Of a stretch of 64,000 nt of DNA, positions 1-6,000 are shown piece by piece. Positions within the stretch are counted from its first letter, which is position 1. Each line of letters starts with the position of its first letter. A program made the position numbers. The stretch is from NCBI RefSeq assembly GCF_057098645.1, contig NZ_CM169472.1. One strand, 5' to 3'.

Positions 1-3000
1 TTCAGGTCAGGGTTTTCCCGCGCTAGTAATCTGGCGTACCTGCGAATATAGTCCAGCTCTTCCCGGTAGTAATCTTCTCCAGATGTCATAATATAACTCC
101 AGTGAATGTATGTGGTTTATATTATCTGATTCTGTACCTGAGAAATAATATTTCAGCCACAACAGGTTATCACAGAGTCAGAAGAACGGATGAACTGTTC
201 CGGTATTATTTTTACGGAATGATTAATCTGTAAATTTATGGCTTGACAATACGCTTTAGTGGAGGATGATTCCATTAATTAACCTAACGTCTGGTGATAA
301 CAAATAAGTCAGCCAAGTAACAAACAAATTACATTCTCACAAATACACTGACATTTGGTTTCCCCTGGCGAAATTTTTGTTGAGGGTATATTTATGTCAC
401 AGGCAGGTCTTCGGTTTACTGTTGATGTGGATGGTCAGCCCACTGAAACCTTTGCCGTCACTCGCTTTCACCTCTCGCAATCCTACTTCTCTCTGTTTAC
501 GCTGGAAATTAATACGGTCAGTGAACGGACCACCCTGAAAGCCAGTACACTACTGGAACAGACGGCACAATTAACTATCTGGCAGGGCAGCACACCGTTA
601 CGCTATGTGACAGGACTGATCGCCGGATTTGAACGCGGTGAATATGACGGGCGAAAAACCAGCTACAGCCTGACGGTTCGCCCCCCGCTCTGGCGCAGCA
701 GCCTACGGCAGAATTTTCGTCATTTTCAGCAGCAGGATATCCAGAGCATTATTCAGCGGCTGCTTGATGATAACCGGGTGGGAGATACAGCATACCTGTT
801 CGATGAAATGCATCCTGCGCGGGAGTTTTGCGTGCAGTACGGCGAAACCGACTATGAGTTTCTCTGCCGACTGATTGCAGAGGAAGGCATCTTTTTTTAT
901 GAGGAACATGCCCAAAAAGGCTCCCGGCAAAAGCTGGTATTTTGTGATCGCGTGGTCTGCCTGCCGGAGGCATTTCCTGTCCCCTTCAATCCGCAGCCCC
1001 GCGGCACATTCACCGAGTGTATCAACCGCTTTCGTTACAGCGCACAGATCCGCCCGGCTTATGTCATCACCAAAGATTACTCCTTTAAAGCCCCCCACTG
1101 GCAGGCCCGTTACCGTAATGATGCACCCGGTCTCAACGGGCAGCGCAACCAGTATGAAAAGCTGGATTACCCGGGCCGTTTCAAGGATGAACAACATGGA
1201 AAGGATTTTGTCCGCTATCAGACAGAGGGATGGCGCAACGATGCTGAAACGGCATCTGGGAGCAGTAATTCGCCAAAGCTGTGGCCGGGAGCACGTTTTA
1301 CACTGACTGAGCACCCTGCCGATGATCTGAACCGGGACTGGCAGGTAGTGGCAAGTGAACTGCATGGCGAACAACCGCAGGCCTCACCGGGAACACATAA
1401 AGAAGGTACCACGCTGGTAAATGAATTTCAGGCGATACCCGCAGATAAAACCTGGCGCTCTTCACCGCTACCCAAACCGAAAGTGGATGGTCCGCAGCCA
1501 GCGGTAGTCACCGGACCAGAGGGGGAGGAAATTTTTTGCGACGAACATGGTCGGGTAAGAGTTAAATTTTTGTGGGATCGCTATCACAAAGCGAATGAAG
1601 ACAGTTCATGCTGGATACGGGTGTCTCAGCCGTGGGCTGGTGCGGGTTTTGGTCATCTGGCTGTCCCACGAGTGGGTCAGGAGGTGATCGTGGACTTCCT
1701 GAACGGTGATCCGGATCAGCCGATTATCGTCGGGCGAACCTATCATCACGATAACCGCTCGCCAGGAAACCTGCCACTAACCAGAACACAAACAACGATT
1801 CGCTCAAAAACATATAAAGGGAACGGGTTTAATGAACTGCGGTTTGAAGATATGACCGGGCAGGAAGAGGTTTATATTCATGCGCAGAAGGATATGAATC
1901 ATGTTATCAACCATGATCGCACCAGCCTGACCAAACGGCATTCTGTGGACAAGGTACAGGGTAACAGTGCTGTCCTGGTGGATGAAAGCCAGGTGATGCA
2001 GGTTGGTGGCACTCAAAATACCAGTATTGGCGGAGACTATGTTTTGTCGGTAGGTAATCATTTTACGGATGGCTACCGTAAAATGAATCTGGCAGCTTTC
2101 CAGGATGATGCCGCCACCCTGTTGAAACAATCGGCATTTTTAGTCGGTGCTAACGGCATCATGCCTGGTATGGGAAACATGACCACTTTTGTACAGGGAA
2201 GTAGAACGGAACATATTAATCTGACAGACACCAGTTCAGTAATTGGTGCAAAACTGATCAATGCCGGAGAAATGATTTCAATCAGTGCCGGAACATTACT
2301 GAGTCTGACTTCTGGAGAGAATAGCAAGGAAACATGTGGTGGCGTAAAAATAATCCAGGCAGTTGATGGAATAGAATTACATACGGGAATGGCCTCTTTG
2401 ACATTAAGAAACAATGGTCATATAGAGATCAAAGGAATAAAAGTTACGATAGAAGGCAGTGATGATGTGACAGTAAAAACACAGGCTCTTAACATTCAAA
2501 GTGAATAACATAATGAAAAAAAGTTATTATTTATATTATTTGTGATTTTACTTATTGAGACTGGGATGCGGTTTACAATATGGAGGGAACTTAATAACAT
2601 CATTCCCACTGCGAAAGATTACAGGTTTGATATAATGGTATATGATCGCATTGACACTGGTTTTATGGGGTGTATTGGACATCATAAGGAGAACTACCTT
2701 ACTATCTCTTATACATTATGGTTAGCAAAAGATGTGCTATGGGCTGATATTATTTGTCAAAACAGAAGTGAATATGTGCGCATATTCACTCAGACGAATG
2801 AAAGATATAGAGCAAAAGATAATAGAGCTTTTGTGTATTATCACTGGAGTTTCAAGCACTGGACCTTTATCGATTCATATCGTGAACAACAGGAGAAAAT
2901 TAATGGCAAACATATACAGTCAGACAAATAGTGATGGTAAATTAGAAAAATGGACCCTTCGGCTAATAGTGTCAGCAGGAGAACACCCCTTACCTAAAAT

Positions 3001-6000
3001 TTCTGATATCGGGGTTGCAAGTTTAAAAATACATTATTGTCTCTGGAATGAAGAGGAATACAATGAAAAATTATCAGTTCCTCCAGTAATTGATGATATC
3101 CCTTCATTACAAAAAAATACTATTGTTTTTCCTAGCGAAGGTAATTTCCCGTGGTCAATATTTAGTAATGACTCGGTAATGTGGGAAACTCAAATCAGTC
3201 AGGATGAATTTGAAAATGCATACTGTCTGATGATTTGGGCAGATCCCATTGGTAGTGCTGCTTTTTTTGATGGTAGTCAATACTGGAAAGGTGTACTCAG
3301 AATTGATGATATGTCTACGCTAAAGGATAATAAAAAGGATGAAGGAAAGAATTATGTAAATCACATTACCGAGGTAAATCTGAAAATATCACAAGGGGTT
3401 ATTTCATATTTTATTGATTTGGTTGAAAAATACAGCTCCGATAGTTTTAATGAACTGAAACTAATACATGATGAAATAAAAAAAGGAAACAGAAATGCAC
3501 TGGGGAGATTAGGTGTAATGGGTCTATCCATAGGGGATAATGATACATGTTATATGTCTATGGCAGTTGATGTTTATGAAGCTAAAAACAGAAATGATAC
3601 AGGCAGGAAAGAAGATCTTTACGATGGCAATTATTATAATGAGCAACGTAAAGTAGCCTTCGGTCCTGATGGTGGTTGTATAAATAACAATCCAATATAT
3701 TACGACCCTGATCATACAACACCTTTCAGCCCTTATTTTGCAGTAAAAGTTAAATGGGGGCAATCAAACATTAGCATATATGATTTTAAATCACCAATAA
3801 AGCAACTATATGCCGAAATGATACGTATTGGTAATGATGGGCGTATATACAGTAATGAGGGCTTTTCTAATCTCAATTGGGGGATTATTGGAAAACAACT
3901 CGAACTTACAAGTAAAGATATGAAAGGTTTTGCTGCTCTTGATCCGAGGTCAAATCATGATGAACATGACGATGCAGCCACAGATATGGGGTATGAAATA
4001 GCAGGTTCGGCTACTTCAGATAAAAATTACCCAGTAAAATTTGACCGGAGGACATTATTTTTCCTCACACTAAAATCACTCAGGGAAAATGATCTCTTTA
4101 CTTGTTTAGGTGCTGAGACTTATAAAGCAAAACAGGAAGCTTTAAAGACAGATCAACAAACCAAAAGATGAAGATAAGCGCTGGAAATTTATGAATAGTG
4201 TTTATCTCATAATAAAAAATCAATGATTTTATCAACGGGAGTGCCGCCTATGCGAGCTGTTATTGTTAAATCATCACCAACATCTACAGGTGGAAAAGTT
4301 TTACTGGGAATAGATATCGTTACAAACGATGGCAACCCCGTTGCTCTTATAGGTATGCAGGCATCCTGTCCTGCCTGTAAAAAAGGTATCGGTGATATTG
4401 TTGCCAAAGGGCCACACCAACAATTTATTAATGGTATAGCGATTGCTCTTGAAGAGGATGTTGTTGCCTGTGGCTGTCCTGAAGGAAGTAATATAGTTTT
4501 ACCATTGACTAAATTGACACAAATTAAATGAGAATCGGTCCCGTTACAATAAACACCTTACTATTAAAATTATGGACCTATTTATATATTAATTCCTTTA
4601 CCCCATAAAGCGGTAAAGGAATCATGTATCATTGGCACTAATAATAAGTCTGAGCACAGATAGTCAATTGTATCACGACGTCTGTTTCAGGCGGCGGGCA
4701 TACTGGTAAGTCGAAACACACCCGTCGTTGTTTGCATCAAGATAATCCGCCCACCACGGCTTCATCTCGCTCCGTTCCTCCAGATATTCAGCCTAGTGAA
4801 TATAAGCAGTCCGAACACGGTTTCTTTCCTGATAGCTCATCTATTTCCGATGGTTTCTTTGCTCCATAACTCCGATCACCGGGAAAATTTTGATTTAGCA
4901 TTTATCAGTCAAACAAAAGGTGGTCAGTCTGGTGGTCTTGACAATCTCAATTTTTTGTTTTAGCTTACCAATCAGCCAGTTAATGGCTACGGCGATCCCA
5001 GTCAGAGGAGCCAAATTCTAAAAATTCGCTTTTTTACCGCAATGTCACTGACCTTAGTTGAACATTGTTTTTTAACGGATAGCGGGTTTTTAACATCTTA
5101 AGCGCCCTCGACCTTTATGGGTGAGGGCGTTTTGCTATGAACGCCATCACCATTTTCCCCTCGATTATAAAACTTGAGTTATTCAGTAGTCTCCCCTCTT
5201 GCAACTCACACCCAAAACTGCCTAACGAAAAGTTATTAATTTTCAATCATATTGCTATCAGGATTTACATTTTTTCGCTGTGCTAGAAAGGGCGCATTTA
5301 TGTTAGCTCGTTCAGGGAAGGTAAGCATGGCTACGAAGAAGAGAAGTGGAGAAGAGATAAATGACCGACAAATCTTATGCGGGATGGGAATTAAACTACG
5401 CCGCTTAACTGCGGGTATCTGCCTGATAACTCAACTTGTGTTCCCTATGGCTGCGGCAGCACAAGGTGTGGTAAACGCCGCAACCCAACAACCAGTTCCT
5501 GCACAAATTGCCATTGCAAATGCCAATACGGTGCCCTACACCCTTGGAGCGCTGGAATCGGCCCAAAGCGTTGCCGAACGTTTCGGTATTTCGGTGGCTG
5601 AGTTACGCAAACTCAACCAGTTTCGTACGTTTGCTCGAGGTTTTGATAATGTCCGCCAGGGTGATGAACTGGATGTCCCGGCACAAGTTAGTGAAAATAA
5701 TTTAACCCCGCCACCGGGTAATAGCAGTGGCAACCTTGAGCAACAAATAGCCAGTACTTCACAGCAAATCGGGTCTCTGCTCGCCGAGGATATGAACAGC
5801 GAGCAAGCGGCAAATATGGCGCGTGGATGGGCCTCTTCTCAGGCTTCAGGCGCAATGACAGACTGGTTAAGCCGCTTCAGTACCGCAAGAATCACGCTGG
5901 GCGTGGATGAAGATTTTAGCCTGAAGAACTCCCAGTTCGATTTTCTCCATCCGTGGTATGAAACGCCTGATAATCTCTTTTTCAGTCAGCATACTCTCCA

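Follow-up and report, generated by a model that had tools for sequence, protein, structure and literature searches.

A Divergent Ntox44-Type Toxin and an Unannotated Candidate Immunity Family in a VgrG-Linked Cassette of Escherichia coli O145:H28

Introduction

In the auxiliary clusters of Vibrio cholerae and the VgrG1–Tle1/Tli1 cassette of enteroaggregative Escherichia coli (EAEC), a type VI secretion system (T6SS) spike gene, an effector–immunity pair, and a PAAR gene occur in a common order, the C-terminus of VgrG co-varies with the cargo, and whole-cassette replacement leaves orphan immunity genes and PAAR fragments behind. Here we analyze a cassette of this kind—vgrG, a small candidate immunity gene, a gene for a putative effector of 422 amino acids (aa), and PAAR—together with its relatives, which share these traits. 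It lies at positions 394–4531 of a 64,000-nucleotide (nt) stretch of DNA (NCBI RefSeq assembly GCF_057098645.1, contig NZ_CM169472.1), which we call the window and which derives from an E. coli chromosome of O145:H28 type. Unlike the V. cholerae and EAEC examples, the window cassette contains no adaptor gene (DUF4123, DUF1795, or DUF2169), has its immunity gene first, travels with its own tssF–tssG pair, and resides in a host without a T6SS.

The toxin is related to Ntox44 (PF15607), a domain defined as all-α with DxK, GNxxxG, and DxxxD motifs (Zhang et al. 2012, PMC3482391). Ntox44 is widespread in T6SS, type VII secretion system (T7SS), and Rhs toxins, and has carried the label "predicted RNase" since 2012. 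With Ntox44 proteins, including the PAAR–Ntox44 proteins of Yersinia and Klebsiella, the window toxin shares the all-α domain, the DxK, GN, and Asp-rich motifs, and the linkage to a T6SS spike. It differs in escaping detection by the Pfam model, in bearing an insertion, and in being a stand-alone cargo protein with an N-terminal β-sandwich rather than a domain appended to the C-terminus of PAAR, Rhs, or LXG proteins; its immunity gene is located upstream and belongs to an unannotated family. Stand-alone toxin-44 proteins of ~350 aa (Chondromyces apiculatus A0A017SSL5 and Methylobacterium radiotolerans B1M1Y0) share the two-domain architecture over the full length, with Foldseek alignments of 411–417 columns, and some proteins of this type are VgrG-linked like the window effector. 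Sequence identity to them is only 16–18%, however, and their neighboring membrane proteins belong to other families.

The module itself is of an ordinary kind, a VgrG-linked toxin–immunity cassette; what is new is the divergent toxin member and the immunity family. We consider it fairly likely that the locus is a T6SS spike cassette of the order vgrG–immunity–effector–PAAR, with an Ntox44 toxin, an exported immunity protein, and a target in the cell envelope, and that it cannot be fired in O145:H28. Roles are thereby proposed for two families of hypothetical proteins limited to a few Enterobacterales: a divergent Ntox44 toxin and a new exported immunity family.

Results

Remote Homology Links the 422-Residue Protein to Ntox44

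The putative effector gene occupies positions 2903–4171 on the plus strand. The initial annotation of this DNA had described a 422-codon open reading frame (ORF) with a proper ribosome-binding site, and this description stands: AGGAG lies 8 nt upstream of the ATG, and the gene overlaps the 3′ end of the preceding small gene by 29 nt. Direct searches with the protein returned no match in Pfam, NCBIfam, PADLOC, PHROGs, or PDB sequences, and PDB profile searches with the family and distant-relative alignments returned nothing useful. A search of 5.8 billion protein clusters recovered only 31 relatives, all unnamed proteins, whose named sources are E. coli, Salmonella enterica (mostly subsp. salamae), Atlantibacter, and Rahnella.

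Predicted structure and profile comparison connect this small family to described toxins. A confident AlphaFold2 (AF2) model built from a 25-sequence alignment (predicted local distance difference test, pLDDT, 86.3; predicted template modeling score, pTM, 0.88) consists of a β-sandwich at residues ~14–164 and an all-α putative toxin domain at residues ~166–421. In a Foldseek search of AFDB50, the matches that followed its own family were full-length matches to "Bacterial toxin 44 domain-containing" proteins (E = 8e-17 to 1.5e-12) from Chondromyces and Methylobacterium, plus one protein fused to LysM. An exhaustive hidden Markov model (HMM) search of 1.84 billion representatives gave the same bridge to distant relatives by sequence. 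PF15607 is matched by 12 of 14 such relatives at E ≤ 0.001, and hhalign aligns the family with the distant relatives at 99.8% probability (E = 3e-29) over 302 columns that extend across both domains. The initial annotation had recognized no known effector family here and had suggested profile and structure searches; these searches (HMM, hhalign, and Foldseek) lead to the polymorphic-toxin superfamily Ntox44, of which the 422-aa protein is a member—remote, divergent, and missed by the Pfam model.

Alongside its homology to PF15607-matching proteins, the protein displays the all-α fold with the DxK, GN, and Asp-rich motifs. Conservation within the toxin domain is highest in a core at residues ~290–363 (positions 3770–3991, plus strand), which carries ISIYDFK (the DxK motif of PMC3482391), RIGNDGRIYSNEGFSNLNWGI (the GN motif), and HDD (the Asp-rich motif). 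Invariant residues in the 25 sequences are D294, K296, R308, G310, N311, D312, R314, Y316–G320, S322, N323, N325–I328, and D356; the last of these lies in the Asp-rich stretch, whose spacing differs among members. The window allele and its nearest relatives have a larger toxin domain, owing to an insertion at residues ~255–285. No signal-like hydrophobic segment is present in the effector, a soluble protein (Kyte–Doolittle maximum 0.93), and a word-indexed search with a toxin-domain fragment for PAAR–Ntox44 or Rhs–Ntox44 proteins gave no candidates.

One toxin-44 homologue lies on a GC-rich contig labeled Oceanobacillus sp. HTM 045, beside a gene for a 1,446-aa calcium-binding repeat protein of RTX type. 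The contig looks proteobacterial, and its organism label or bin may be wrong. We did not use this locus as an instance of Gram-positive occurrence.

A Small Gene of an Unannotated Family Adjoins Every Effector Homologue

Upstream of the effector gene, what had been listed as a doubtful 129-codon ORF turns out to be the remainder of a real, conserved gene of 139 codons (positions 2513–2931, plus strand, with its ATG at 2513), as recognized from a frameshift comparison with O145 genomes and from its conserved family. At positions 2516–2522 the window has a run of seven A residues (A7), whereas most O145 genomes have eight (A8). The A8 version encodes 139 aa with the N-terminus MKKKLLFILFVILLIETGMRF. 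Because the window has one A fewer, its frame from the ATG at 2513 closes after 10 codons (MKKSYYLYYL-stop), and the residual ORF comprises 129 codons at 2542–2931 with a GTG start at 2542. Two complete genomes match the window in length at this A-run, and there RefSeq annotates a single hypothetical gene only.

The initial annotation saw no signal peptide in any of the three ORFs downstream of vgrG, but the intact small protein has an N-terminal export or membrane signal: its Kyte–Doolittle 19-residue mean reaches 2.19 at residues 5–23, and N-terminal means of 1.8–2.45 are found in nine of ten family members. A Lys/Arg-rich tip precedes the hydrophobic helix in the small proteins, and the AF2 model places a helix at residues 2–30. 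Invariant positions of the family alignment are E16, R20, P32, Y37, C54, Y62, Y67, C82, Y110, W112, and S113, two of which are cysteines (C54 and C82). None of ten family members matched Pfam, and a word-indexed homologue search with the small protein found only itself. A PHROG match (E = 0.0027) was marginal and was disregarded.

Genomic context gives the family its likely role. An HMM made from four homologues placed a family member directly beside every fetched homologue of the 422-aa gene. Its placement varies: it is 5′ of the effector gene in Enterobacterales and 3′ in a metagenomic relative, where the order is VgrG, effector, small transmembrane (TM) protein, PAAR, and where the small TM protein matches the family at an hhalign probability of 90%. 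Rahnella has two tandem copies upstream of the effector gene and a third downstream. Atlantibacter subterraneus (fetched locus 11969–13004) has two orphan copies 3′ of PAAR, followed by a 38-aa PAAR fragment; these copies share 84–88% identity with the cognate small proteins of the alleles of E. coli E7-1N7 and AHM8C212RI, but only 32% with the cognate copy of Atlantibacter itself. The orphan copies and the PAAR fragment look like the scar of an earlier cassette replacement. E. coli AHM8C212RI carries an additional small-gene fragment.

Tandem duplication and orphan copies that match foreign alleles are classic behavior of T6SS immunity genes. Because the small gene is always adjacent to the toxin gene, occurs in tandem copies, and leaves orphan copies of foreign alleles, the genomic pattern marks it as most likely the cognate immunity gene, and the small proteins as a new immunity family, so far unannotated. 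The proposal of a VgrG-delivered toxin module in the initial annotation is borne out as to vgrG linkage and as to the 422-aa protein as putative cargo effector, but the immunity candidate is the small upstream gene and not PAAR.

In Rahnella laticis, two mutually similar polytopic membrane-protein ORFs of 108 aa and 143 aa (11784–12110 and 12906–13337) bracket the extra immunity copy 3′ of PAAR. They may be immunity genes of another, absent toxin.

Superfamily Neighborhoods Point to a Target Outside the Cytoplasm

To relate the exported small protein to the wider superfamily, we scanned the neighbors of 79 Ntox44 loci, taking one genome per species (GTDB) and defining a neighbor as the next ORF of at least 80 aa. 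A TM segment was predicted in 48 of 69 next-downstream ORFs vs. 8 of 60 upstream (Fisher P = 5e-11). The segment is N-terminal in 47 of those 48 downstream ORFs, and several have lipoprotein-like L-x-x-C boxes. These downstream neighbors form at least 14 unrelated sequence clusters, and the other Ntox44 immunity candidates showed no homology to the window immunity family (hhalign probability ≤ 4%). The pattern points to Ntox44 toxins acting outside the cytoplasm, and the exported or TM-bearing downstream neighbors across the superfamily argue against its RNase label.

The window family fits the same picture. With a Lys/Arg-rich end before the helix, the positive-inside rule predicts a periplasm-facing immunity domain, and an exported immunity protein in turn implies a periplasmic toxin target. 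A periplasm-acting toxin with a periplasmic immunity protein, which the initial annotation had disfavored, is now the favored model on account of the exported small protein.

Under this model, the VgrG spike would bear the effector as its cargo, with cargo choice probably set by the last ~170 residues of VgrG, which co-vary with the effector. Once loaded, the spike would be propelled by a T6SS into neighboring bacteria. The small upstream protein would serve as cognate immunity, its N-terminal helix anchoring or exporting it and its Cys-containing domain lying in the periplasm. The toxin target would most likely be the cell envelope, either the periplasm or the outer face of the inner membrane; our leading guess is peptidoglycan or its precursors, with cytoplasmic RNA less likely. 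In O145:H28, which has no complete T6SS, the cassette cannot be fired and appears to be decaying.

The effector could alternatively be a cytoplasm-acting RNase, with the small protein tethered to the inner membrane as an immunity protein whose domain faces the cytoplasm. Zhang et al. (2012) class Ntox44 with predicted RNase toxins (PMC3482391), later genome surveys repeat the label, and one paper ranks Ntox44 among characterized nuclease domains, citing Ma et al. 2017; the effector also lacks a signal peptide, and either compartment can be reached by T6SS effectors. Set against this are the Lys/Arg-rich N-terminus before the helix, which favors an N-in, C-out orientation, and the two invariant cysteines of the small proteins. 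The superfamily adds the N-terminal TM or signal segments of 47 of the 69 downstream neighbors, some with export-directing L-x-x-C boxes, and the LysM domain fused to one relative. We found neither experimental RNase evidence nor any demonstrated Ntox44 activity in the searchable literature. On balance we regard the cytoplasmic RNase as unlikely, and the effector is probably not an RNase, despite the annotation.

Beyond the published label, several points weigh against an envelope-acting Ntox44 toxin. Ntox44 membership of the 422-aa protein rests on remote homology: PF15607 itself misses the protein even at E ≤ 10, and no structural relative of the toxin domain was found in the PDB. The small protein yielded a weak AF2 model (pLDDT 67); membrane segments were called by hydropathy window, and small-protein topology by the positive-inside rule. 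The downstream-ORF counts draw on genomes related to one another, and the 69 cases are therefore not independent. The A7 tract of the window could be a homopolymer assembly error rather than a real mutation. Toxicity, secretion, and binding are predicted roles across the whole effector clade.

The N-terminus of the effector bears on a further alternative. Of 25 effector homologues, 13 start with MGNI[FY]S, a sequence compatible with the consensus for eukaryotic N-myristoylation. Ser6 hardly varies in the family; the window effector starts MANIYS (positions 2903–2920), with Ala at position 2. An anti-eukaryotic effector whose MGxxxS N-terminus is myristoylated in host cells, with the small gene serving another role, would agree with this motif and with the enterohaemorrhagic pathogen that carries it. 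Gly2 is not conserved, however, with other members starting MW, MS, or MT. Occurrence of the small gene in tandem and as orphans is a signature of interbacterial immunity, the carriers include plant- and soil-associated Rahnella and Atlantibacter, and the host has no T6SS. We give an anti-eukaryotic role very little credence. The MGNI[FY]S N-terminus may be a loading motif.

If the evidence for an envelope target holds, many Ntox44 annotations would be wrong, and Ntox44 would be an envelope-targeting enzyme for which no structural relative was found in the PDB. The genomic argument against an RNase role of Ntox44 toxins is the most useful by-product of this analysis. The enterobacterial toxin–immunity pair is small and easily tested in E. 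coli.

The Swappable Unit Begins Inside vgrG and Excludes PAAR

The spike gene vgrG (tssI; positions 394–2508, plus strand; 704 aa), already recognized as such in the initial annotation, matches TIGR03361 (587.7 bits against a cut-off of 186; E = 1.9e-176) and the Pfam domains Phage_GPD, Phage_base_V, and Gp5_trimer_C, and thus has the gp27-like and gp5-like domains of a VgrG protein. Beyond residue 558, no Pfam domain was found. The variable 3′ part of the gene, its last ~170 codons (positions 2000–2508, plus strand), diverges jointly with the two downstream genes, and the corresponding residues are a presumed cargo-specifying extension.

Base composition and allele comparison delimit the variable unit. 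GC content is 0.33–0.38 over positions ~2200–4600, compared with 0.51–0.55 for both the 5′ portion of vgrG and the gene downstream. The AT-rich block reported earlier is therefore real in composition, but the low-GC variable part starts inside vgrG, at ~nt 2000, and not after it. We compared the window with two other E. coli alleles, from strains E7-1N7 and AHM8C212RI. Identity is 91–100% up to ~nt 2000, 40–82% from there to ~nt 4260, and 89–100% from PAAR onward; at ~nt 2000 (vgrG codon ~536) it drops from 93–100% to 64–82%. Among the E. coli alleles, the VgrG C-terminus, the small gene, and the effector gene share 40–70% identity. From this profile it follows that the swappable unit consists of the last ~170 codons of vgrG, the small gene, and the 422-aa gene (~2000–4260), with PAAR excluded.

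The PAAR gene (positions 4250–4531, plus strand; 93 aa) encodes a small stand-alone protein beside vgrG with a PF05488 domain at residues 9–77 (E = 6.2e-16). Its start at 4250 is favored by agreement with RefSeq and with the Rahnella homologue. The gene is 91–100% identical among the E. coli alleles, unlike the cassette 5′ of it. The initial annotation of a PAAR-like protein of ~94 aa was thus right about the domain and close in length, but its description as tip- or immunity-like cargo does not hold: the PAAR protein is a structural spike tip, neither cargo nor immunity protein.

With spike and tip accounted for, the two AT-rich genes between them might be accessory proteins—an adaptor or chaperone, or a divergent TssE or TssK—that complete a tssF–tssG–vgrG–PAAR set. 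The initial annotation had likewise entertained an adaptor–effector pair. Neither gene product matches TssE, TssK, DUF4123, DUF1795, or DUF2169 in Pfam or NCBIfam, and the adaptor and chaperone families DUF4123 (Tap/Tec), DUF1795 (Eag), and DUF2169 (TvpA) were unmatched by the 422-aa protein, the small protein, and 10 homologues of the latter. The C-terminal domain of the larger protein is homologous to a polymorphic-toxin domain, and the small protein, unlike TssE, contains a membrane helix. Rahnella has the gene pair without tssF and tssG, and orphan arrays and hypervariable alleles are not expected of structural parts. An accessory role is accordingly most improbable. Tvp accessory proteins are DUF2169-based (PMC13373197), and a Tvp identity for the AT-rich genes was set aside for want of a DUF2169 match.

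Cassette Order Is Conserved at Different Chromosomal Sites

The order vgrG, small gene, ~400-aa gene, PAAR is shared by E. coli (three alleles), Salmonella enterica subsp. salamae, Atlantibacter, and Rahnella. A co-occurrence analysis, which the initial annotation had proposed, gave a positive result: effector homologues adjoin vgrG and PAAR at all Enterobacterales loci and, among five more distant loci with flanks read, at three.

In E. coli, S. salamae, and Atlantibacter the cassette belongs to a six-gene unit—tssG, tssF, vgrG, immunity gene, effector gene, PAAR—found at three different chromosomal sites. The unit lies in the asn-tRNA island of E. coli, between the tolB–pal region and nadA beside an integrase fragment in S. 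salamae, and, in Atlantibacter, with a LysR-family gene on one side and a sigma-54 activator gene on the other. The tssF–tssG pair is intact in the fetched loci (E. coli RM12761, 16906–19790; S. salamae, 4270–7115; Atlantibacter, 4279–7127). In each of the three pairwise comparisons, the ratios of nonsynonymous to synonymous substitution rates (dN/dS) for tssF, tssG, vgrG, and the effector gene lie within 0.05–0.23, with tssF and tssG at 0.13–0.19. For PAAR the ratio is 0.06 (Salmonella vs. Atlantibacter only); the E. coli and Salmonella PAAR proteins are only distantly related. In Rahnella the spike cassette occurs with neither tssF nor tssG.

The six genes might form a mobile kit of loaded spike plus wedge, whose own TssF and TssG would let a foreign VgrG and toxin plug into the T6SS of a recipient; we put this forward tentatively and consider it doubtful. 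Alternatively, the six-gene set could be the remnant of a decayed full T6SS cluster.

The Cassette Appears Stranded in O145:H28

Over nt 300–4700, the window is 99.9–100% identical to 23 complete genomes, almost all of them O145. Similar DNA is rare, occurring in 29 of 5,426 complete E. coli genomes. RefSeq annotation of strain RM12761 puts the region inside an island that adjoins an asn-tRNA gene and an integrase gene, with tssG and tssF on one strand and, on the opposite strand, tssI/vgrG, two hypothetical genes, PAAR, and a gene for a large immunoglobulin (Ig)-like adhesin.

Published surveys and our own searches agree that the machinery around this spike is incomplete. O145:H28 lacks OI-7, the T6SS island of O157 (PMC5567499), and has homologues of 5 of 22 T6SS-2 genes and none of the T6SS-1 and T6SS-3 genes (PMC9144400). 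At the aspV/yafV site of RM12761 only one hcp gene is present, and sensitive blastn with the island tssF detected no second tssF copy, leaving one tssF-like locus and no complete T6SS in the genome. Beyond the six-gene unit, this hcp gene is the sole T6SS gene of the E. coli host. Because O145:H28 has no complete T6SS, there is no machine to fire the spike cassette, and delivery from this genome is unlikely. A module that cannot be fired has no place among the active virulence or competition factors of O145:H28.

Signs of decay fit this absence of a firing machine. Besides the A7 frameshift of the window, an IS3 element cuts the effector gene of RM9154-C1 (O145; fetched locus 4105–6686) into two annotated fragments, and FWSEC0002 shows a similarly interrupted match at the effector gene (match pattern only). 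The module in O145:H28 appears to be a stranded, decaying relic.

At its left edge, the window includes the 5′ end of tssF (positions 1–89, minus strand; the first ~29 codons of a gene cut by the window start), mapped from the RM12761 RefSeq annotation (tssF 17931–19790, offset 19701); by the same annotation, tssG lies outside the window, further upstream. Between tssF and vgrG is an AT-rich divergent intergenic region (positions 90–393) with one back-to-back pair of sigma-70-like sites, at 243–270 (plus strand) and 234–205 (minus strand), each with 10 of 12 matches. This pair is only suggestive, because promoter-like sites in the spacer were not above shuffled expectation in number. A terminator scan gave about twice the expected number of terminator-like sites, none positioned to delimit the operon.

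On the other side, a YeeJ-like Ig-domain adhesin (inverse autotransporter) gene 3′ of the cassette is broken into ORFs at 5252–8134 and 9469–14640 by an IS3-family element at window positions 8186–9399, which contains an ALIL programmed-frameshift pseudoknot (Rfam RF01497, 8467–8583). RefSeq annotates the adhesin gene of RM12761 as frameshifted. Backbone features of the window are three tRNA genes (tRNA-Asn in RefSeq), the small RNA STnc240, and the his operon leader (20980–21052, 22800–22872, 25209–25281, 42390–42464, and 45204–45327).

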